DNA of 15,042 nt, taken from the UHGV virus genome UHGV-0217160. One strand, 5' to 3'. Numbering within the stretch: position 1 is the first letter of the stretch; the number at the start of each line of letters is the position of its first letter. The position numbers and the translations under genes were made by a program. The DNA comes from a virus. Shown in pieces: positions 1-15,042 of the stretch. Below the pieces are notes generated by a model. It made no database searches, was not told the origin of the DNA, and worked only from the letters and a program-made list of their open reading frames with translations.

Positions 1-3620
<3,620 letters not shown>

Positions 3621-3640
<20 letters not shown>

Positions 3641-4940
3641 TCTCCCGCATATTGCCAGCATGGCCTTTAATGAGCCGCTGATGCTTGAACCCGCCTATGC
3701 GCGGGTTTTCTTTTGTGCGCTTGCAGGCCAGCTTGGGATCAGCCGCCTGACGGATGCGGTGTCCGGCGACAGCCTGACTGCCCAGGAGGCACTCGCGACG
3801 CTGGCATTATCCGGTGATGATGACGGACCACGACAGGCCCGCAGTTATCAGGTCATGAACGGCATCGCCGTGCTGCCGGTGTCCGGCACGCTGGTCAGCC
3901 GGACGCGGGCGCTGCAGCCGTACTCGGGGATGACCGGTTACAACGGCATTATCGCCCGTCTGCAACAGGCTGCCAGCGATCCGATGGTGGACGGCATTCT
4001 GCTCGATATGGACACGCCCGGCGGGATGGTGGCGGGGGCATTTGACTGCGCTGACATCATCGCCCGTGTGCGTGACATAAAACCGGTATGGGCGCTTGCC
4101 AACGACATGAACTGCAGTGCAGGTCAGTTGCTTGCCAGTGCCGCCTCCCGGCGTCTGGTCACGCAGACCGCCCGGACAGGCTCCATCGGCGTCATGATGG
4201 CTCACAGTAATTACGGTGCTGCGCTGGAGAAACAGGGTGTGGAAATCACGCTGATTTACAGCGGCAGCCATAAGGTGGATGGCAACCCCTACAGCCATCT
4301 TCCGGATGACGTCCGGGAGACACTGCAGTCCCGGATGGATGCAACCCGCCGGATGTTTGCGCAGAAGGTGTCGGCATATACCGGCCTGTCCGTGCAGGCT
4401 GTGCTGGATACCGAGGCTGCAGTGTACAGCGGTCAGGAGGCCATTGATGCCGGACTGGCTGATGAACTTGTTAACAGCACCGATGCGATCACCGTCATGC
4501 GTGATGCACTGGATGCACGTAAATCCCGTCTCTCAGGAGGGCGAATGACCAAAGAGACTCAATCAACAACTGTTTCAGCCACTGCTTCGCAGGCTGACGT
4601 TACTGACGTGGTGCCAGCGACGGAGGGCGAGAACGCCAGCGCGGCGCAGCCGGACGTGAACGCGCAGATCACCGCAGCGGTTGCGGCAGAAAACAGCCGC
4701 ATTATGGGGATCCTCAATTGTGAGGAGGCTCACGGACGCGAAGAACAGGCACGCGTGCTGGCAGAAACCCCCGGTATGACCGTGAAAACGGCCCGCCGCA
4801 TTCTGGCCGCAGCACCACAGAGTGCACAGGCGCGCAGTGACACTGCGCTGGATCGTCTGATGCAGGGGGCACCGGCACCGCTGGCTGCAGGTAACCCGGC
4901 ATCTGATGCCGTTAACGATTTGCTGAACACACCAGTGTAA
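3621..4940 (+). CDS. C: Capsid maturation protease / minor capsid protein C-type (S49/ClpP-like), GTG start
   Basis: The ORF track opens at 3507, but the lambda C N-terminus (TAELRNLPHIASMAFNEP...) begins at GTG 3621, preceded by GAGGAGAAGA. The C-terminal part is the Ala/Gln-rich scaffold-like region. Stop TAA at 4938-4940. Confidence 0.85.
4335..4940 (+). CDS. Nu3: Scaffolding protein Nu3-type (in-frame internal start within C)
   Basis: In-frame ATG at 4335 (MDATRRMFAQKVSAYTG...) sits where lambda Nu3 starts inside the 3' part of C. Called from established lambda gene organisation, not from an independent signal in the sequence. Confidence 0.5.
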   Translation: MDATRRMFAQKVSAYTGLSVQAVLDTEAAVYSGQEAIDAGLADELVNSTDAITVMRDALDARKSRLSGGRMTKETQSTTVSATASQADVTDVVPATEGENASAAQPDVNAQITAAVAAENSRIMGILNCEEAHGREEQARVLAETPGMTVKTARRILAAAPQSAQARSDTALDRLMQGAPAPLAAGNPASDAVNDLLNTPV

Positions 4941-4949
4941 GGGATGTTT

Positions 4950-5282
4950 ATGACGAGCAAAGAAACCTTTACCCATTACCAGCCGCTGGGCAACAGTGAC
5001 CCGGCTCATACCGCAACCGCGCCCGGCGGATTGAGTGCGAAAGCGCCTGCAATGACCCCGCTGATGCTGGACACCTCCAGCCGTAAGCTGGTTGCGTGGG
5101 ATGGCACCACCGACGGTGCTGCCGTTGGCATTCTTGCGGTTGCTGCTGACCAGACCAGCACCACGCTGACGTTCTACAAGTCCGGCACGTTCCGTTATGA
5201 GGATGTGCTCTGGCCGGAGGCTGCCAGCGACGAGACGAAAAAACGGACCGCGTTTGCCGGAACGGCAATCAGCATCGTTTAA
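4950..5282 (+). CDS. D: Head decoration protein, lambda gpD-type
   Basis: [110 protein letters not shown]. The ORF track starts two codons earlier at 4944; the lambda-type start is the second ATG. Confidence 0.9.
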
Positions 5283-5302
5283 CCTTACCCTTCATCACTA
5301 AA

Positions 5303-5324
5303 GGCCGCCTGTGCGGCTTTTTTT
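5303..5324 (+). terminator. D-E intergenic GC hairpin followed by a T7 run (terminator/attenuator-like)
   Basis: GGCCGC-CTGT-GCGGC stem-loop at 5303-5317 followed by TTTTTTT (5318-5324), between the D stop and the E start. Confidence 0.4.
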
Positions 5325-5337
5325 ACGGGATTTTTTT

Positions 5338-5613
5338 ATGTCGATGTACACAACCGCCCAGCTGCTGGCGGCAAATGAGCAGAAATTTAAGTTTGATCCG
5401 CTGTTTCTGCGTCTCTTTTTCCGTGAGAGCTATCCCTTCACTACGGAGAAAGTCTATCTCTCACAAATTCCGGGACTGGTAAACATGGCGCTGTACGTTT
5501 CGCCGATTGTTTCCGGTGAGGTTATCCGTTCCCGTGGCGGCTCCACCTCTGAATTTACGCCGGGATATGTCAAACCCAAGCACTTAGCATGGCTTTCTGA
5601 GGCTTTCGTGTAG
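5338..5613 (+). pseudogene. E: Major capsid protein E (lambda-type), truncated after codon 82 and fused to 9 unrelated codons
   Basis: MSMYTTAQLLAANEQKFKFDPLFLRLFFRESYPFTTEKVYLSQIPGLVNMALYVSPIVSGEVIRSRGGSTSEFTPGYVKPKH matches the lambda E N-terminus, then LAWLSEAFV-stop. Full-length E is ~341 aa, so about 75% of the gene is missing. The break coincides with the start of the island. Confidence 0.85.
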
Positions 5614-5745
5614 TTGCTGGTTTTTACACTTAATCTTTTGATAATAAAGAATAAGTTTATCTGGCGCTTTCACTGAATTTTCCTCGTTATCTGTGTGTTG
5701 CAATCATCTCTGTATTGCAGCTTGTATTGCTTTTTGGGGCTAAAA

Positions 5746-6981
5746 ATGGCTGGCGAGAACAAACTGAGCGACAAAGCGCTTAAAGGATATCTGGGGAAAC
5801 CCAGAGAAAAGCAGATCACCATTGCTGATGGAAAGGGGCTTTCTATTCGTGTGAGTACCAAGGGGGCTGTGAGCTTTGTTTTCTTCTACAGGTTAGCAGG
5901 TGGCCGGGCTGCTCCGGTCTGGCTAACGTTGGGTAAATATCCTGATATGTCACTCAAACAGGCAAGGGAAAAGCGCGACGAGTGCCGTGGTTGGTTGGCT
6001 GACAAACGTGATCCGCGTATCCAGATTAAGATTCAGGCTGAAGAACGCTTAAAGCCGGTCACAGTGGAGGATGCACTAAATTACTGGTATGAAAATTACT
6101 GTAAGGTGCGTCGTAAAACTCATGCTGTAACGCTTGGCAGATTTCGAAAGCATATCTTTCCCTATATCGGTCATTTGCCCGTAAATGACACTCACCTATA
6201 TGAATGGCTGGACTGTTTTGACCGAATTAAACGTAATGCACCAGTTATGGCGGCGTATGTTTTTTCTGACACTAAATTAGCTCTTCGTTTTTGTCGGGTA
6301 CGCCAGTACGCGACGTGTGATGCTTTAAAGGATTTGCGCATGAGTGATGTGGGGCAGATTGCAGGTAAGCGGGATCGGGTTCTGGATGAAGCCGAACTCG
6401 GCCAGCTCTGGAAGGCAATTTTTGTCGAGCCTGATTTAAAACTAATGTCTGAATACACGCGAAAAATGTTTGTGCTTTGTACAGTATTTGGATGTCGAAT
6501 GAGTGAAGCCCGATTATCAGAATGGAGCGAATGGGATCTCGAAAGTTGGGTTTGGACTGTACCAAAAGATCACTCAAAAACTGGTGTTGAAATCGTCAGA
6601 CCAGTACCTGAAATTCTACGACAGTGGGTAACGGATGTTCACGAAGAGACAAAACATACTGGTTATGTGCTGGGAAGTCTGCGAATTAGAGAAAGCGTAA
6701 GCAAGATTGGGGGGAAAATCGGTAAACGTTTGGGCCATGAAAAACAATGGTCACTACACGACCTTAGAAGAACGCTATCTACTCATCTAAGTGATCTCGG
6801 TGTTGAATTTTATGTAGTAGAACAACTGTTAGGCCATGCGCTACCTGGCGTGGCGGGTGTTTATAACCGGAGTAAGTTTATGGCTAAAAAACTGGATGCT
6901 CTGGAACTCTGGACTACATATCTCAATAGCATCGCAGGTGCTGATTCAAAAGTGACAATCCTCAAACAAAAGGCTGGTTAA
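5746..6981 (+). CDS. int: Tyrosine integrase, P4-type (N-terminal arm-binding domain plus C-terminal catalytic domain)
   Basis: MAGENKLSDKALKGYLGKPREKQITIADGKGLSIRVSTKGAVSFVFFYRLAGG... is a typical P4-family integrase N-terminus. The C-terminal region contains HDLRRT...LGH...GVYNRS, consistent with the R-H-R-Y catalytic set. The ORF track start at 5695 is a 5' extension. Confidence 0.9.
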   Translation: MAGENKLSDKALKGYLGKPREKQITIADGKGLSIRVSTKGAVSFVFFYRLAGGRAAPVWLTLGKYPDMSLKQAREKRDECRGWLADKRDPRIQIKIQAEERLKPVTVEDALNYWYENYCKVRRKTHAVTLGRFRKHIFPYIGHLPVNDTHLYEWLDCFDRIKRNAPVMAAYVFSDTKLALRFCRVRQYATCDALKDLRMSDVGQIAGKRDRVLDEAELGQLWKAIFVEPDLKLMSEYTRKMFVLCTVFGCRMSEARLSEWSEWDLESWVWTVPKDHSKTGVEIVRPVPEILRQWVTDVHEETKHTGYVLGSLRIRESVSKIGGKIGKRLGHEKQWSLHDLRRTLSTHLSDLGVEFYVVEQLLGHALPGVAGVYNRSKFMAKKLDALELWTTYLNSIAGADSKVTILKQKAG

Positions 6982-6982
6982 C

Positions 6983-7207
6983 ATGAAAAAAATGGCAATT
7001 GTTGATAAAAAGGGTCTGGAGTACAATCCTAACATCGATCGTATGATCCGTGAGAAAGAATGTCGGGAGCTAACCACTCTTGCGAACAGCACACGCTGGA
7101 AGCTGGAGAAGGAAGGAAAATTTCCTAAGCGGATCAAGATTGGTGCTACAGCTGTGGCGTATCGCCTCTCTGAAATTCAGGCATGGATTAAAGGGGATTG
7201 GAAGTAA
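6983..7207 (+). CDS. alpA: AlpA-family (Phage_AlpA / MerR-like HTH) transcriptional regulator
   Basis: 74 aa; RELTTLANSTRWKLEKEGKFPKRIKIGATAVAYRLSEIQAWI matches the AlpA helix-turn-helix-wing signature. It lies 1 nt after the int stop, the conserved int-alpA arrangement of P4-like elements and Gram-negative PICIs. Confidence 0.85.
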   Translation: MKKMAIVDKKGLEYNPNIDRMIREKECRELTTLANSTRWKLEKEGKFPKRIKIGATAVAYRLSEIQAWIKGDWK

Positions 7208-7239
7208 TTTTAATTATTTTTTATACGGTAGGAATAAGA

Positions 7240-7995
7240 GTGGACTATATAAGCGAAGTTGTTTTGGATAAAGTTGTGAATGAACTTGCAACAAGGGCTA
7301 AAAATGCAAGGAGAGCAAGGGCTCTAATAGGTATGACTATAATTTCTGTGGCCGTAATTCTTTCTGCGTTTATTTCCTATAGACTAACTGATGACTTTTC
7401 ATTAAAAGGGTTTAGAAGTGGTTTGTTCGCTTCTACAATTTCAAATGGATTCAATGATACATCGGGAATACGTGAAGCGTTTAATCTGGAACTATTAAAT
7501 GTATTTCCAGAAACATCGAAGAGTGATTCGATTGCCAAGTTGTTTTCTCAATTAGATGGAGGAACTCCTCAGTCTAGTGGTGAAAATGAAGTATTAAAAA
7601 AAATTACTAAGGAAGAGAAAGACGAAGCTCTTTCTTATGTAAGTAAATTGGTTGATTACTATGTCAAAGTTGCCGCAGCTGAAAATGGACGTCCGGTTAA
7701 CAAAACAGATAATACATATAGTAGTTTGATTAGTTCATTAGCTCTTTCAGCAGGTGCTGTCGGATTTGTATTATATATCTTACAGATAGCAGTTAGTTTT
7801 GTGCGTTATTACTCTAGACTGGCTGAGTTATATGACTCTCAACGGACTGCGTTAATTGCATCTGACGGCAATGTCGAAACGGCAAAAATACTTATGGATA
7901 TATTATCAAATGATCATGTCGGTTTGGGAAAAGAACCAACTACTTTATATGGAAAAGCATTAGATGTAATTGGCGAGGTTGCAAAGTCAAAATAA
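7240..7995 (+). CDS. Hypothetical membrane protein with two predicted transmembrane helices (AT-rich cargo gene)
   Basis: Open frame 7198-7995. Likely start is GTG 7240 preceded by TAGGA (a TTG at 7198 is the alternative). Hydrophobic segments MTIISVAVILSAFISY and LISSLALSAGAVGFVLYILQIAVSFV flank a ~115-aa hydrophilic loop. Hand-counted sample lines are about 35% G+C against about 60% in the lambda-type genes. No recognisable family. Confidence 0.6.
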   Translation: MDYISEVVLDKVVNELATRAKNARRARALIGMTIISVAVILSAFISYRLTDDFSLKGFRSGLFASTISNGFNDTSGIREAFNLELLNVFPETSKSDSIAKLFSQLDGGTPQSSGENEVLKKITKEEKDEALSYVSKLVDYYVKVAAAENGRPVNKTDNTYSSLISSLALSAGAVGFVLYILQIAVSFVRYYSRLAELYDSQRTALIASDGNVETAKILMDILSNDHVGLGKEPTTLYGKALDVIGEVAKSK

Positions 7996-8356: not shown

Positions 8357-8713
8357 TCAATATTTAGGTGGTTCTACAAGAGCGTTTATCATTGCTCTCA
8401 AATTATCTCGGACACTTATCCAAGTCTGTTCTGCTCGTTCTAATTCATCAGTGTACAGCTTTAATGTTTTATCTATGCCATATGTGGCTATTAAATTTAT
8501 AGCTTCTTGTAACTTTTCGGGGTTATTCCTTCTTGGGGGCGTAAATATACCTCGGATTTTTCCGGTGATTAAAGCTTTACGGTGTCTGCATAGAATACCT
8601 TTACTTCCAGCAGGACAATTACAAGTCATGATTAGCGAGCCAGAATCGTTTGATACAGTGACTATGTATACATCCAAACTACTGCTACTTGTTGCGAAGA
8701 ATTCGTATTTCAT
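8357..8713 (-). CDS. SWIM-type zinc-finger protein (hypothetical)
   Basis: 118 aa; contains C-N-C-PAGSKGIL-C-R-H (CxC-x8-CxH), the SWIM zinc-finger signature. Strong SD (AAGGAG, 8 nt upstream on the minus strand). Sits 27 nt downstream of the RHH gene in the same orientation. Confidence 0.6.
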   Translation of the reverse strand: MKYEFFATSSSSLDVYIVTVSNDSGSLIMTCNCPAGSKGILCRHRKALITGKIRGIFTPPRRNNPEKLQEAINLIATYGIDKTLKLYTDELERAEQTWISVRDNLRAMINALVEPPKY

Positions 8714-8740: not shown

Positions 8741-8935
8741 TTATCCTTTTGGTTCAATTCCGCGACGTAGCAGCTCTTTGCGCCCTAATTCTTTAAGCCA
8801 GTTGGCTAGGCTTACCCCATCGTTACTGGCTTCGTTATCAAACTGCTCCTTCAATTCAGGAACTATGCGCATATGGAACGGTGGGGCCTTTCCTGTGCCT
8901 TTTGGTTTTTTATCGCGCTTAATAATCGTTGACAT
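8741..8935 (-). CDS. Arc/Mnt-like ribbon-helix-helix DNA-binding protein (candidate repressor)
   Basis: 64 aa; PPFHMRIVPELKEQF followed by ASNDGVSLANWLKELGRKEL parallels the Arc repressor beta-strand and helix A (PQFNLRWPREVLDLV...ENGRSVNSEIYQRV). Its start codon abuts the palindromic operators. Confidence 0.65.
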   Translation of the reverse strand: MSTIIKRDKKPKGTGKAPPFHMRIVPELKEQFDNEASNDGVSLANWLKELGRKELLRRGIEPKG

Positions 8936-9497: not shown

Positions 9498-9785
9498 ATG
9501 AAAAATAAATTTTCTGGCTTTATTGCCAGCGGTCAAACTCATTCAAAAATCAGCCTTGGGGATATTTTCAAAGATAGCTATGGCTATCGGGTAAAGATTA
9601 TTTCGGTTGATGATCGCCGTGTCTCTTATTTGCGTGATGGTTATGATTTTGAATGTGTTATGCCGCGTCAGCAGTTCGAAAGAGATTTCATTCTGGTAAA
9701 AAATTGCAAGACAGATAATCAGAGGCGTTCCGCAGGCTATATCCGCAAAATTCGGGCAATGTTAGTTGCCGGAGGTAACAAATGA
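9498..9785 (+). CDS. Hypothetical protein (95 aa)
   Basis: ATG 9498 with GGAGA upstream; stop overlaps the primase start (ATGA). No family recognised. Confidence 0.55.
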   Translation: MKNKFSGFIASGQTHSKISLGDIFKDSYGYRVKIISVDDRRVSYLRDGYDFECVMPRQQFERDFILVKNCKTDNQRRSAGYIRKIRAMLVAGGNK

Positions 9786-11602
9786 AACGTGCTCCGAACT
9801 TAAAATACCAACCGCGCGACAAAATGACAGAAGTCATCATTTTTGCTGGCAGTGATGCCTGGAGCCATGCAAAAGAATGGAATGAATGGGCGGGTAAGCA
9901 TATTGCAGCAGATGATACACCACCAGTAATTCTGGGTACGGAACAACTGGAAAACCTGGATGATATGCAAATTATCGATGAAGGCCGTCATTATGTGCGT
10001 GTTTATCGTGCCGGAAAGATCGCAGAGAAAAATCTGACGAAGGTTGCGACATTACTTGCTATTGCAGGCGTAAAGGAAGCACGTTGTTACCGTAGCTTTG
10101 TTGATCGAGAGCCTGAAAACTGGACTCCGCGCCTTGTCGGCCTAAAAGCTGAAGCGGAGCATGGGGAAAGTCTGGTGATTGAACTGCCAGTGAAGAAGGC
10201 TGAGCGCAAAAATGACGAGCGTGCTTCATCTTTGGCGTTGAATCAGATGGGGGCCAGCCAGCGCGGTGAAGTTCTCCTTGCACATTACGGCGGCGAACTG
10301 GCAATCAATGCCGACTCTGACACCGTTCATCATTACAACGGCGTTGTATGGGAGCCGGTTCAGGATAAAGAGTTACAGCGTGCTATGGCGCAGATTTTCA
10401 TTGATGCGGAGATCAGCTATTCGCAGAACGCCATTAAATCGGCGGTAGATACCATGAAGTTAAGTTTGCCTGTAATGGGGAATACAGCCCGTAACCTGAT
10501 TGGATTCAGTAACGGGGTATTTGATACCAGAACTGGTAATTTTCGGGAGCATAACAAAAACGACTGGTTGTTAATTGCCAGTGAATTACCTTTCAGCCCA
10601 CCAGCAGAGGGGGAAACGCTGGCAACACATGCGCCGAATTTCTGGAAGTGGTTGCGCCGTTCGGTGGCTGAGAATGACCGCAAGGCAGATCGCGTACTGG
10701 CGGCATTATTCATGGTGCTGGCGAACCGGTACGACTGGCAGTTATTCATTGAGGTAACAGGGCCGGGGGGAAGTGGTAAAAGTGTGATGGCGGAGATTTG
10801 CACCATGCTGGCGGGTAAGGCTAATACAGTATCAGCAAGCATGAAGGCGCTGGAAGATGCAAGGGAACGTGCGTTAGTGGTTGGCTTTTCGCTGATTATC
10901 ATGCCGGATATGACCCGCTACGCTGGTGATGGGGCAGGGATTAAGGCCATTACAGGCGGTGACAAGGTGGCAATTGACCCGAAACACAAAGCCCCCTATT
11001 CAACGCGTATTCCGGCAGTAGTGCTGGCGGTTAACAATAACGCCATGTCATTCAGTGACCGCAGCGGGGGGATCTCACGTCGTCGGGTGATATTCAATTT
11101 TTCGGAAGTTGTACCGGAGAACGAACGCGATTCGATGCTGGCGGAAAAAATAGAAGGTGAGCTGGCGGTAGTGATTCGTCATCTGCTTACACGGTTTGCT
11201 GATCAGGACGAAGCCAGACGCCTGTTATATGAGCAGCAGAAATCTGAAGAAGCACTGGCGATAAAGCGAGAGGGGGATTCGCTGGTGGACTTCTGCGGCT
11301 ATCTCATGGCATCGGTAATGTGTGATGGCCTGTTAGTGGGTAATGCTGAAATTGTGCCATTCAGCCCACGCAGGTATCTCTATCATGCCTATCTGGCTTA
11401 TATGAGGGCACATGGGTTTGGTAAACCTGTAACACTGACGCGCTTCGGTAAAGATATGCCGGGGGCAATGGCGGAATATGGCAGGGAGTATATGAAACGG
11501 AAAACGAAGCACGGTTTGCGTTCAAACGTGACACTGACGGAGGAATCAGAAGACTGGATGCCATCATGTGTATCGGTCACTAATGACGATAGCAAAAATT
11601 AA
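9782..11602 (+). CDS. Phage/plasmid primase-helicase, P4-family (D5/SF3-type NTPase domain)
   Basis: 606 aa; Walker A GPGGSGKSV and a Walker-B-like hydrophobic stretch ending in D (LIIMPDM). Size and position (after int/alpA, immediately before the iteron ori) match the pri/rep gene of P4-like elements and PICIs. Confidence 0.85.
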   Translation: MKRAPNLKYQPRDKMTEVIIFAGSDAWSHAKEWNEWAGKHIAADDTPPVILGTEQLENLDDMQIIDEGRHYVRVYRAGKIAEKNLTKVATLLAIAGVKEARCYRSFVDREPENWTPRLVGLKAEAEHGESLVIELPVKKAERKNDERASSLALNQMGASQRGEVLLAHYGGELAINADSDTVHHYNGVVWEPVQDKELQRAMAQIFIDAEISYSQNAIKSAVDTMKLSLPVMGNTARNLIGFSNGVFDTRTGNFREHNKNDWLLIASELPFSPPAEGETLATHAPNFWKWLRRSVAENDRKADRVLAALFMVLANRYDWQLFIEVTGPGGSGKSVMAEICTMLAGKANTVSASMKALEDARERALVVGFSLIIMPDMTRYAGDGAGIKAITGGDKVAIDPKHKAPYSTRIPAVVLAVNNNAMSFSDRSGGISRRRVIFNFSEVVPENERDSMLAEKIEGELAVVIRHLLTRFADQDEARRLLYEQQKSEEALAIKREGDSLVDFCGYLMASVMCDGLLVGNAEIVPFSPRRYLYHAYLAYMRAHGFGKPVTLTRFGKDMPGAMAEYGREYMKRKTKHGLRSNVTLTEESEDWMPSCVSVTNDDSKN

Positions 11603-11615
11603 ACTTATGGAATAA

Positions 11616-11847
11616 CTGTTCACCACTGTTCACCCTGTCATAAATATCTTTTATATCAGTATATTATAGGGTGAACAGTTATTTATGAACTGTTCACCAA
11701 ACTATTCACTGTTCACCTTTTTGATTGTTTATTGAGCTTCAAGGGTGAACAGTGGTGAACAGTTGGTGAATAGTTTTTGTGAAACTGTTCACCCATTAAC
11801 ATTATGAATTAAAAGAGAAAATATCAAAAGGTGAACAGGTGAAGGGT
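11616..11847. repeat. Iteron-type replication origin: 9 perfect and at least 1 degenerate copy of GGTGAACAG in both orientations, with an AT-rich unwinding block
   Basis: CTGTTCACC at 11616, 11626, 11690, 11709, 11785; GGTGAACAG at 11670, 11744, 11754, 11830; GGTGAATAG at 11765. Tandem copies have 10-11 bp periodicity. AT-rich stretch at 11635-11669. Directly downstream of the primase gene. Confidence 0.8.
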
Positions 11848-11889
11848 TAAAACGCAAAAATTTTAATTTACTGCTGTGAGATAAAGCCT

Positions 11890-12135
11890 ATGACAGCGAA
11901 GCACACAAAAAAATCACAATCGCACGCCCTTGATTTGACGGAACACTGGTTAAGGGTGTCGATAAAAATCATCGACCGCAACGCCGGGGAAGGTTACGCG
12001 AAAGCACATCCCGAACTGATTAGCGCATTCATGACAACGGCGGCTGCAAACTTTGCCACTCTGACCGAACGGGAGATTGCTGAAGCGGAGGAAGTGACAA
12101 CAATCAATATTAAGTCCGGAGAGCAGGCAGCATGA
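11890..12135 (+). CDS. Hypothetical protein (81 aa)
   Basis: ATG 11890; stop overlaps the start of the SSB-like gene (ATGA). No family recognised. Confidence 0.5.
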   Translation: MTAKHTKKSQSHALDLTEHWLRVSIKIIDRNAGEGYAKAHPELISAFMTTAAANFATLTEREIAEAEEVTTINIKSGEQAA

Positions 12136-12581
12136 CGGCGCAAATATCAGTTTACGGGCGGTTGGTGGACGACCCGCAGACAAAACAGACCAGCAAGGGC
12201 ACCCCCATGACGCTGGCGCGTATGGCGGTATCACTGCCCTGCAGTCAGTCGGATGACGGTCAGGCGACGATGTGGTTATCTGTCCTGGCGTTTGGCAGAC
12301 AAGCCGACGCGCTGGCAAAGCATCACAAAGGCGAACTCCTGAGCGTGGCGGGTAACATGCAGATGAGCCAGTGGACTGGACAGAACGGCGAAACGCGGCA
12401 GGGCTGGCAGGTTATCGCAGACAGCGTAATCAGTGCGCGATCGGTGCGACCGGGCGGCAATAAAGGCCAACAGGGGCAGGCTACTGACGCACTGAACAGA
12501 GCAAAACAACAGGCAGATCAGCAAGGAAGCCAGCCACCAGTGGGAGATAATGAGCAATGGGGAGATGATATCCCGTTTTAA
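12132..12581 (+). CDS. Single-stranded DNA-binding protein-like (OB fold with SSB-type acidic C-terminal tip)
   Basis: 149 aa; N-terminal region resembles the SSB OB fold (ISVYGRLVDDPQ...MWLSVLAFGRQADALAKHHKGELLSVAGNMQMSQWTGQNGETRQGWQV), followed by a Gly/Gln-rich linker and the C-terminus DDIPF, as in E. coli SSB. Confidence 0.7.
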   Translation: MTAQISVYGRLVDDPQTKQTSKGTPMTLARMAVSLPCSQSDDGQATMWLSVLAFGRQADALAKHHKGELLSVAGNMQMSQWTGQNGETRQGWQVIADSVISARSVRPGGNKGQQGQATDALNRAKQQADQQGSQPPVGDNEQWGDDIPF

Positions 12582-12600
12582 ATATTGCCAATAAAAAAAG

Positions 12601-12624
12601 CCGGAAAAAATAAATTTTCCGGCA
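12601..12624. terminator. Perfect 9-bp-stem hairpin (GCCGGAAAA / TTTTCCGGC) between the replication module and the capsid operon
   Basis: Stem 12601-12609 pairs with 12616-12624, loop 6 nt. The A-run is 5' of the stem on the plus strand and there is no 3' U tract, so terminator function for the rightward transcript is uncertain. Confidence 0.3.
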
Positions 12625-12797
12625 TGCTACATAAATCCCGACCAAAGGGAGTGAAGATATTAACACTAATTGTCCGCACTGAAGTTGTCACCCCAAAACT
12701 TTATACAACATTGCACTCGGTTGCATGTGTTCGCATGACAAATATCGGTGATAGCATATATCCACAATTATTTTTAATGAATGCAAAGAGGATGCGT

Positions 12798-13838
12798 ATG
12801 GTTGATTTATATTCGCCTACTCAGCTTGTACAGGTGGTTAATGCTGTAGATGTACAAAAACAACTAAATGCGTTGTTTACCAGTTTGTTTTTTACTCGCT
12901 CGGTAATGTTTGAATCGCGCGATATTATTCTTGATACAATCGACGATCCAAATATCCCAATTGCAGCATTTTGTTCTCCTATGGTGGGTAGTAAAGTTTC
13001 ACGTGACGAAGGGTACGAATCAAAAACAATTCGTCCAGGCTATATGAAGCCGAAAAGCAGCATTGATCCAAATAAGTTAGCTGTGCGCCCTGCTGGTGTA
13101 TCACCTGAGCAATACAATGCTTTTGGGGCGCGTAATATTAAAGTTAAACAGGCGATTGTAAATCAAGCTAAAGCTATTCGTGCACGTATTGAATGGCTTG
13201 CCGTTCAGGCAATCACAACGGGGAAAAATATCATTGAGGGCGATGGTATTGAACGTTATGAGCTGGACTGGAATATTAAACCACAAAATATCATCACTCA
13301 GTCTGGCGGTGCTGAGTGGTCAGGTAAGGATAAAGAAACTTTTGATCCAAATGATGATATTGAGAGCTACGCAGAATTTAGTGAGGGCGTCACTAATATC
13401 ATCATTATGGGCGGTAATGTATGGAAGAAATACCGTTCATTCAGAGCGATAAAAGAGGCTCTGGATACCCGTCGTGGTTCTAATTCCGAACTGGAAACGG
13501 CCCTTAAAGACCTTGGTGATTCGGTGAGTTTTAAAGGATATATGGGCGATGTTGCGATTGTTGTTTACAGCGGGCGTTATACCGACGAGGACGGAACTGA
13601 AAAACATTTCCTTGATCCTGATTTGATGGTGCTTGGCAATACGGCTCTTCAGGGGATTGTCGCCTATGGCGGTATTCAGGATCCGGAGCTAATCCGAATG
13701 GGGCTGACTAAAGCCGAACTTGCACCGAAAAACTATATTGTGCCTGGTGATCCTGCTATTGAATATGTGCAGACACATTCAGCACCACAGCCAATACCGG
13801 CCCGCATCAATCGTTTTGTTACCGTTCGCATTGGCTAA
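12798..13838 (+). CDS. Major capsid protein, lambda gpE-family (HK97-fold), diverged island-encoded paralog
   Basis: 346 aa from ATG 12798 (AAGAGGA upstream), which aligns with the lambda E start. Alignable end to end with lambda E: MVDLYSPTQLV / MSMYTTAQLL; GYMKPK / GYVKPK; ITQSGGAEWSGKDKETFDPNDDIESYA / ITQSGGTEWSKRDKSTYDPTDDIEAYA; DTRRGSNSELETALKDLG identical over 14 of 18; GDVAIVVYSG identical. The track ORF from 12585 is a 5' over-extension through the hairpin. Confidence 0.88.
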   Translation: MVDLYSPTQLVQVVNAVDVQKQLNALFTSLFFTRSVMFESRDIILDTIDDPNIPIAAFCSPMVGSKVSRDEGYESKTIRPGYMKPKSSIDPNKLAVRPAGVSPEQYNAFGARNIKVKQAIVNQAKAIRARIEWLAVQAITTGKNIIEGDGIERYELDWNIKPQNIITQSGGAEWSGKDKETFDPNDDIESYAEFSEGVTNIIIMGGNVWKKYRSFRAIKEALDTRRGSNSELETALKDLGDSVSFKGYMGDVAIVVYSGRYTDEDGTEKHFLDPDLMVLGNTALQGIVAYGGIQDPELIRMGLTKAELAPKNYIVPGDPAIEYVQTHSAPQPIPARINRFVTVRIG

Positions 13839-13847
13839 GGGGGAGCA

Positions 13848-14189
13848 ATGGCTACTCATTACACTGAACTCATGGCTGGCACTGAAGCACTGGTGACTAC
13901 GCTGGGGATATTTTCAGCTAATAAAGGGGTAATTCCTGCATTTACGCCACTGATGCAGGAAGATGCAACAGGTGCACTGGTAGTATGGGATGGTTCGAGC
14001 GTAGGTAAAGCGGTTTATGTTTCCGCTGTACAAATCGACACCGCGAAAAAAACACAGGCTCAGGTCTATAAGACAGGTGTCTTAAATGTTGATGCTCTGA
14101 ACTGGCCTGAGTCTGTTAAAGAACTGTCAGTAAAGGTTGCAGCGTTTGTTGGCTCAGGTATTTCTGTTCAGCCGCTGGCTCGTGTGTAA
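13848..14189 (+). CDS. Head decoration protein, lambda gpD-family, diverged island-encoded paralog
   Basis: 113 aa. AFTPLMQEDATGALVVWDGSSVGKAV...VYKTGVLNVDALNWPE...AAFVGSGISV aligns with lambda [27 protein letters not shown]...[16 protein letters not shown]...[11 protein letters not shown]-rich SD AAGGGGGAG. Immediately downstream of the E-like gene, the same D/E pairing as lambda but in reverse order. Confidence 0.8.
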   Translation: MATHYTELMAGTEALVTTLGIFSANKGVIPAFTPLMQEDATGALVVWDGSSVGKAVYVSAVQIDTAKKTQAQVYKTGVLNVDALNWPESVKELSVKVAAFVGSGISVQPLARV

Positions 14190-14829: not shown

Positions 14830-15042
14830 ATGGAAGCCAACAAAAAGCAGCTGGCTGACATTTTCGGTGCGAGTATCCGTACCATTCAGAACTAGCAGGA
14901 GCAGGGAATGCCCGTTCTGCGAGGCGGTGGCAAGGGTAATGAGGTGCTTTATGACTCTGCCGCCGTCATAAAATGGTATGCCGAAAGGGATGCTGAAATT
15001 GAGAACGAAAAGCTGCGCCGGGAGGTTGAAGAACTGCGGCAG
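14830..15042 (+). pseudogene. Nu1: Terminase small subunit Nu1-type, interrupted by an in-frame TAG at codon 22; 3'-partial at window end
   Basis: ATG 14830: MEANKKQLADIFGASIRTIQN, then TAG (14893-14895) where lambda Nu1 has Trp, then QEQGMPVLRGGGKGNEVLYDSAAVIKWYAERDAEIENEKLRREVEELRQ in the same frame to the window end. AGGAG at 14897-14901 precedes the in-frame ATG at 14908. Confidence 0.75.

Follow-up and report, generated by a model that had tools for sequence, protein, structure and literature searches.

A probable accessory single-stranded-DNA-binding protein encoded in the replication module of a helper-embedded phage satellite of Escherichia coli

The helper-embedded configuration of phage-inducible chromosomal islands (PICIs) was published in 2023 and is represented by the element 11capE, which lies in capsid gene E; 11capE excised upon mitomycin C treatment, and no particles were recovered (PMC10111431). 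In the same work, the Primase, SSB and DUF5906 families were found to colocalise with the origin and were assigned to the replication zone of Gram-negative PICIs; SSB is mentioned there as a category label only. In published PICIs, the origin directly follows the replication initiation gene on its 3' side (PMC6092414). SSB goes unmentioned in the papers on capsid-forming PICIs (cf-PICIs), in the SatelliteFinder and EcCIMP1 papers, and in both papers on EcCICFT073, the prototype Gram-negative PICI. The present analysis follows up an earlier note, made from the sequence alone, in which an open reading frame of one such element was read as an SSB-like protein with the C-terminal tip of E. coli SSB.

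The satellite and its replication module

The right two-thirds of the window (i.e. the whole stretch of DNA analysed, 15,042 nucleotides) match a chromosomal segment of E. coli S1bESBLb, and also of three other strains, with 100% identity. At locus L001 of S1bESBLb, a lambdoid prophage has its major capsid gene, which is lambda-E-like, split by an island of about 10.9 kb; the helper capsid gene breaks off after its N-terminal part at about window position 5583, and its C-terminal part follows outside the window (L001 22931-23719). The helper genes for terminase, W, portal, protease and D lie 5' of the island (window 1-5613), and FI and the tail genes lie 3' of it. With its size (PICIs, about 10-20 kb), few late genes (E-like, D-like and a terS-like pseudogene) and neither lysis nor tail genes, the island corresponds to a PICI. 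No identity block longer than 6 nt that could represent attL/attR was detected at the island junctions in a simple ungapped search, and the island boundaries are therefore approximate. The element is a Gram-negative PICI, helper-embedded and inserted in capsid gene E, and the ssb gene lies in its replication module, so that the attribution of this gene to a phage satellite in the earlier note was correct.

Like 11capE (PMC10111431), the element is a PICI of about 11 kb, is inserted in a lambdoid prophage within the lambda-E-like capsid gene and in the same orientation, and has an E-like capsid gene, a primase and an origin of its own; the likeness is one of configuration. Whereas the helper of 11capE sits at icd, the helper prophage described here abuts a tRNA-Ser gene beside mtfA.

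The left end of the island carries int for a tyrosine integrase (5695-6981, plus strand) and alpA (6983-7207, plus strand), followed by an accessory zone that includes a 265-aa ORF as well as oppositely oriented SWIM and HicB-like genes. The subsequent genes and features are, in this order, an Icd-like gene, a hypothetical protein gene, a DUF4222 gene, a primase-helicase gene, iterons, orf81 and ssb; after ssb, the island contains its own E-like capsid gene, a D-like decoration gene, a second AlpA-like gene, a small-terminase-like pseudogene and a DUF2971 gene. The DUF4222 gene (9498..9785, plus strand; Pfam PF13973, 78 bits) overlaps the start of the primase gene and is part of a conserved replication module, the order of which matches that in cf-PICIs and in EcCICFT073. 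The primase-helicase gene (9782..11602, plus strand) is predicted by Pfam to encode a D5_N, a DUF5906 and a Pox_D5 C-terminal domain, and its product matches phrog_864 (DNA primase) with 622 bits. In the adjoining A+T-rich intergenic region (11603..11889), which is the probable replication origin, GGTGAACAG occurs about 12 times, in either orientation (repeat families D2 and D3, inverted pairs).

The origin region is followed by orf81 (11890..12135, plus strand), a gene for a conserved small protein that matches phrog_1231 ('unknown function', 163 bits). Its TGA stop codon (12133-12135) overlaps the ATG of ssb as ATGA, and ssb has in addition its own Shine-Dalgarno sequence, GGAGAG (12118-12123, plus strand), 8 nt 5' of the ATG and within orf81. 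Both features agree with the translational coupling of ssb to an 81-aa ORF without known function, as put forward in the earlier note.

The ssb gene product

The ssb gene (12132..12581 including the stop codon, plus strand) starts with an ATG at 12132 and ends with a TAA at 12579-12581; its product comprises 149 aa, with MTAQISVYGRLV at the N-terminus and NEQWGDDIPF at the C-terminus. Three SSB profiles match the product: Pfam PF00436 (SSB; residues 4-99) with 60.6 bits (curated cut-off 26; E 1.7e-16), NCBIfam TIGR00621 (ssb) with 70.1 bits (curated cut-off 53.95), and phrog_44 ('single strand DNA binding protein') with 131.9 bits. The alignment to TIGR00621 spans residues 4-149 of the protein on positions 6-165 of the model (165 in total), i.e. 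the match extends to the tip. When the protein was used to search the PDB by sequence, all matches at E < 0.001 were bacterial SSBs, the best being 1z9f of Thermotoga maritima (E 3.6e-12). The protein is 100% identical to RefSeq WP_000126718.1, named 'single-stranded DNA-binding protein'. A homologue search yielded 558 matches, and nearly all of the named ones among the 120 listed are from Enterobacteriaceae. The dN/dS of the whole gene in comparison with five homologues is 0.08-0.17, indicating purifying selection. Judged by these matches, the ORF at 12132-12581 encodes a bona fide SSB-family protein.

Residues 1-103 (12132..12440, plus strand) represent an OB-fold domain with predicted ssDNA-binding function. 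An AF2 model of the protein, built on 37 family members, is of moderate confidence (mean pLDDT 69; 65-89 within the domain) and places strands at residues 3-11, 16-19, 25-35, 45-54, 69-82 and 88-101 and a helix at residues 55-62; this order, E-E-E-E-H-E-E, makes up a five-strand OB barrel with one helix. In a Foldseek search with the model, all 50 of the 50 listed PDB matches were bacterial SSBs, SsbA included, with E-values down to 6e-9 and target TM-scores of up to 0.80. The dN/dS of the domain is 0.07-0.20.

The chromosomal SSB of E. coli (EcSSB; P0AGE0) served as the reference. The OB domain is 23% identical to that of EcSSB; hence, the fold is indeed divergent, as the earlier note had supposed, yet it is well within reach of profile models. 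The residues W48, F54 and W81, all three invariant in the family, align with W54, F60 and W88 of EcSSB, which together with W40 are the aromatic residues that stack on ssDNA; three of these four aromatics are thus kept, and the fourth (W40) is replaced by C37. The position of EcSSB H55, the tetramer-interface residue that is altered in the ssb-1 mutant, is occupied by L49. Because of these two replacements, the binding mode and the oligomeric state could differ from those of EcSSB. In overall architecture, the satellite SSB is like EcSSB in its OB fold, in its equivalents of W54, F60 and W88, and in a disordered C-terminal region that ends in DDIPF. It is unlike EcSSB in its length (149 aa vs. 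178 aa) and in its linker, which is shorter (about 40 aa vs. about 56 aa), not rich in Gly/Pro, and partly predicted to be helical.

The linker (aa 104-140; 12441..12551, plus strand) includes a conserved segment, QQGQATDALNRAKQQ. In the AF2 model a helix is predicted at residues 114-130 at low confidence (pLDDT about 50-60), and residues 104-113 and 131-149 have a pLDDT below 50. The QQGQATDALNRAKQQ motif is found in 89 of the 113 full-length family members; the members without it, EcCICFT073 among them, carry RRKTTGTQGNQPPAGG or a Q/N-rich linker, and the linker helix is missing from the EcCICFT073 and cf-PICI variants. A segment of such high conservation in most family members is atypical of SSB linkers.

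The acidic C-terminal tip comprises the last 9 residues (12552..12578, plus strand). Among the 120 homologues listed out of 558, 104 end in IPF, 110 in PF and 113 in Phe; the family alignment shows no variation at D145 and F149 and hardly any at P148. The resemblance to the tip of EcSSB is therefore not coincidental. Moreover, the three unrelated linker types (QQGQATDALNRAKQQ, RRKTTGTQGNQPPAGG and Q/N-rich) all converge on DDP(Y/F)xDxIPF, and the tip, which stays constant while the linkers are swapped, is therefore the selected part. The earlier note had also portrayed the tip as specially retained, and this does not hold: among the 113 nearest 50%-cluster representatives with lengths of 120-210 aa (taken from a library of 1.8 billion proteins), at least 67 have an acidic tail with a terminal Phe, many of the others look incomplete, and such a tail is the default state of the SSB family. 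The description of the motif as host-type applies to the acidic tail with its terminal Phe, which is conserved; it does not apply to the exact DDIPF, which varies across genera. The satellite SSBs end in YDDDF in Klebsiella, in HEDDF in Enterobacter hormaechei and Rosenbergiella, in DDETPF in Enterobacter asburiae and E. sichuanensis, in DDEPPF in Scandinavium, and in DDQIPF in Leclercia. Since Klebsiella, Enterobacter and other genera have tips other than IPF, the partners of the tip may differ from the exact host set.

Distribution and relatives of the orf81-ssb cassette

Of 5426 complete E. coli genomes, 1791 (33%) contain blastn matches to the 692-nt segment of orf81 and ssb, in up to six places per genome; all but two of the 2528 places (2526) are chromosomal. 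The homologues of orf81 number 159, and all named ones among the 120 listed are from Escherichia, Shigella or Citrobacter.

The same cassette is found in EcCICFT073, where it lies 5' of the capsid (c1499) and decoration (c1500) genes, and in cf-PICIs, where the order is DUF4222, primase, a gap, an 85-aa ORF, ssb (with the ATGA overlap), PerC and an HK97-type capsid module. The SSB of EcCICFT073 (WP_000126698.1, C_RS06995) is 69% identical to the window protein and shares the GDDIPF tip; the cf-PICI SSB (P0107; loci L002-L006) is 70% identical. Common to the window, EcCICFT073 and the cf-PICIs is the succession of DUF4222, primase, iteron origin, a small ORF (85 aa in the latter two; C_RS06990 in EcCICFT073) and ssb, joined to the small ORF via ATGA. 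The window SSB is, unlike those of EcCICFT073 and the cf-PICIs, 13 aa longer and equipped with the QQGQATDALNRAKQQ linker segment that those variants lack; further, the window has no downstream PerC gene, and its iterons differ (GGTGAACAG in the window vs. GGTAGACAG in cf-PICI L002 and EcCICFT073). Between the window and the cf-PICIs the identity is 70% for ssb and 84-88% for orf81 (dN/dS of orf81, 0.17), but 42% for the primase, 43-46% for the DUF4222 protein and 41-44% for the integrase. With ssb and orf81 far more similar than the primase, and with different iterons, the cassette is exchanged independently of the initiator-origin pair.

In 18 loci of other species, the SSB homologue follows the primase-helicase wherever an upstream replication gene could be identified; in most loci of other Enterobacterales genera, it is located 180-690 nt 3' of the primase-helicase gene. 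The primases near the SSB gene are of three architectures (D5_N plus DUF5906; Toprim plus D5_N plus DUF5906; Zn-ribbon plus Toprim plus DUF927, or DUF927 alone), the related loci each have their own set of iterons in the same place, and SSB is present whatever the type of primase (25 loci). SSB thus generally accompanies satellite replicons, irrespective of the initiator. The ORF that is coupled 5' of ssb varies as well. In the Escherichia PICIs analysed it is orf81 or its 85-aa counterpart; Pluralibacter has an unrelated ORF of 105 aa at this place, Citrobacter a PerC-like gene, and Yokenella the primase gene itself.

Phage- and plasmid-encoded SSBs are presumed to supplement the host SSB during the element's own replication. 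The satellite SSB is like those of phages (phrog_44) and conjugative plasmids in that it is an accessory SSB on a mobile element with an acidic, Phe-ending tail; unlike them, it forms a separate lineage, is almost exclusively chromosomal in E. coli, and is encoded beside satellite-type primase-helicases in every locus examined. A phage or conjugative-plasmid origin of the lineage was considered and rejected: the best identity in the phage collection is 34%, and only eight plasmid records have matches at 60-80% identity.

The identity of the protein as an SSB was already known, through the RefSeq name and through the listing of SSB as a replication-zone family of Gram-negative PICIs (PMC10111431); the original observation is thus correct but ordinary. 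The additions made here are modest, i.e. that roughly one in three complete E. coli genomes has the cassette, that the cassette moves independently of primase and origin, and that the acidic, Phe-ending tip remains constant while linkers are swapped.

Role of the satellite SSB

The protein is probably an accessory replication SSB, which would coat the DNA unwound at the satellite origin and hand it over to the host replisome via its tip. A role in the replication of the element, as suggested in the earlier note, fits the position of ssb directly after the primase-helicase gene and the iteron origin. Upon helper induction, the satellite primase-helicase would bind the GGTGAACAG iterons just upstream and unwind the origin; SSB and the orf81 protein would be translated from one transcript, and SSB would cover the exposed single strands, supplementing the host SSB pool, on which helper replication would draw too. 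The tail ending in DDIPF would then dock partners of the host SSB, e.g. the chi subunit of the Pol III clamp loader and PriA, and the host replisome would copy the satellite. On this reading, the satellite SSB would act as a dose-boosting factor that is neither origin-specific nor a new activity; it speaks against such a role that the host already makes abundant SSB with the same tip.

It is well established that the tip of E. coli SSB recruits chi, PriA, RecQ, ExoI and others (e.g. PMC10164576 and PMC7145534). The last five residues of the satellite SSB are identical to those of EcSSB, which suggests that its tip, too, may bind host genome-maintenance proteins. For the transfer of EcCICFT073, only int, alpA and pri have been reported to be important, and some transfer, at a low level, persists even upon deletion of pri-rep (PMC6092414); SSB may therefore be dispensable.

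The earlier note had alternatively proposed that the satellite SSB competes with host or helper SSB for partner proteins. The lambdoid helper prophage offers no SSB to compete with, as none is annotated in any part of it; competition for the host partner proteins is conceivable though unlikely. The helper, having no annotated SSB, would depend on the host SSB network, and this would expose it to an SSB whose tip, perhaps with the linker helix and orf81, diverts or titrates host SSB-interacting proteins. Partners would thereby be pulled to satellite DNA or off the helper, contributing to interference with the helper or to the protection of satellite DNA against processing by ExoI, RecJ or RecQ. 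Such hijacking of the SSB hub is unlikely. It is in line with the conservation of the tip under selection and with the unusual conservation of the linker segment in most family members, but a tip that is the family default needs no special explanation, the linker helix is not shared by the EcCICFT073 and cf-PICI variants, and ssb is located in the replication zone, outside the interference/late zone. Furthermore, RppA (c1503) has been published as the interference factor of EcCICFT073; in the lambda-interference screen, clones are listed from c1499 onwards, i.e. 3' of ssb, and SSB was thus apparently outside this screen.

We consider it improbable that the SSB serves as a dedicated adaptor, the tip of which would capture the host SSB interactome while the linker helix (QATDALxRAxQ), possibly with orf81, binds components of the satellite or helper and so directs the host replisome towards the satellite origin, to the detriment of the helper. 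If true, this would constitute a new mechanism of interference or replication priority and, with the cassette in a third of E. coli genomes, a widespread modifier of the SSB hub that can be induced. If SSB did determine the replication priority of satellite versus helper, this would be cheaply tractable in EcCICFT073.

A function in recombination is doubtful to a high degree: SSB, possibly together with orf81, would aid recombination-dependent replication or single-strand annealing and thereby the production of concatemers for cos packaging in full-size helper capsids. The genes for SSBs adjoin recombinase genes in many phages (PMC11846896), PICIs of the EcCICFT073 type are packaged as phage-length multimers (PMC6092414), and orf81 is tightly coupled to and co-conserved with ssb. 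However, orf81 has no similarity to annealing proteins, and searches of Pfam, NCBIfam and PADLOC returned no match for it; its AF2 model is an uninformative helical hairpin (pLDDT 67), for which a Foldseek search of the PDB gave nothing at E < 6. Also, the ORF coupled upstream of ssb differs in other genera (105-aa ORF, PerC-like, primase).

Some defence systems sense phage SSBs, and the satellite SSB might accordingly serve as a decoy for bacterial immune systems that detect foreign SSBs or ssDNA, or else activate them, shaping the range of usable helpers and hosts; this is highly improbable, as no PADLOC model matches SSB or orf81, ssb lies in the conserved replication zone and not in the variable accessory zone, and its conservation pattern is that of a standard SSB. 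Satellites are described as often carrying defence or anti-defence cargo (PMC10085698); specific support was found for neither the defence-related nor the recombination reading.

As to the expression of the cassette, a crude scan of positions 11500-13000, weak as a negative, revealed no sigma-70-like promoter before orf81 and ssb. The C4/isrK immunity RNAs have been reported in some PICIs; in an Rfam scan of the window, no family reached its gathering score. A terminator scan of the gap between ssb and the capsid gene identified a G+C-rich hairpin (12600..12623), the T-run of which is on the minus strand only, so that it would be at best a weak terminator for plus-strand transcripts.

Insertion in the helper capsid gene

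The satellite has inserted into the major capsid gene of a lambdoid prophage, a lambda-E-like gene that runs in the same orientation as the satellite. Helper sequence occupies the left side of the insertion (window 1-5613), and the satellite extends from about 5584 onward, with its right junction lying beyond the window; in the E. coli chromosomal locus with the identical island (L001), the two parts of the interrupted capsid gene are found at 11739-11984 and 22931-23719. Excision of the satellite is needed before the helper can produce capsid protein. In its insertion within capsid gene E, the satellite agrees with the helper-embedded PICI class represented by 11capE (PMC10111431). The helper prophage has an integrase of its own, annotated as frameshifted (L027 18756-19806, outside the window); because of this frameshift, the helper-satellite composite in this strain may have lost the ability to excise normally.

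Putative origin and the SSB linker

Directly 3' of the primase gene, about 12 GGTGAACAG iterons, some in one orientation and some in the other, are densely arranged around A+T-rich spacers (window 11603-11889). This array presumably represents the satellite origin; related satellites carry iterons of different sequence at the same position.

SSB linkers are normally variable and of low complexity. The linker of the satellite SSB (aa 104-140; window 12441-12551) contains the segment QQGQATDALNRAKQQ, for which a helix is predicted with low confidence and which is kept across genera in most members of the SSB family; such conservation is unusual among SSB linkers. The 136-aa and 146-aa variants of the family have unrelated linkers in place of QQGQATDALNRAKQQ.

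Capsid, decoration and small-terminase-like genes

Between ssb and the capsid gene of the satellite, a G+C-rich hairpin is located at window 12600-12623, with a T-run on the minus strand only; it would therefore terminate antisense, not sense, transcription. The prototype Gram-negative PICI EcCICFT073 and the capsid-forming PICIs (cf-PICIs) carry a PerC-family gene at the corresponding position.

The satellite encodes its own E-like capsid protein (window 12798-13838), with 44% identity to the interrupted helper E in the C-terminal part and 33% in the N-terminal part, and a D-like decoration protein (13848-14189) with 38% identity to helper D. The equivalents in EcCICFT073, c1499 and c1500, were reported to be dispensable for transfer and interference (PMC6092414).

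A small-terminase-like gene (window about 14830-15042, continuing past the window; L001 21231-21782) lies at roughly the same position as rppA (c1503) of EcCICFT073. The annotation gives this gene an internal stop and classes it as a pseudogene. If the internal stop is real, the satellite may have lost its packaging-redirection factor.

Accessory zone and a related SSB copy

The accessory zone comprises a plus-strand 265-aa ORF (window 7198-7995), for which the family search gave no match, and an opposite-strand (minus) pair of genes for a SWIM zinc-finger protein (8357-8713) and a HicB-like antitoxin (8741-8935). The former weakly matches the PADLOC candidate PDC-S62 (E 5e-5); for the latter, an adjoining toxin is absent from the annotation.

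A 60%-identical copy of the enterobacterial satellite SSB, together with a D5-type primase fragment, is found on a 5.7-kb contig (L020) binned as Candidatus Paceibacterota. The bin is a MAG of a CPR bacterium, and the assignment is most likely a binning error.
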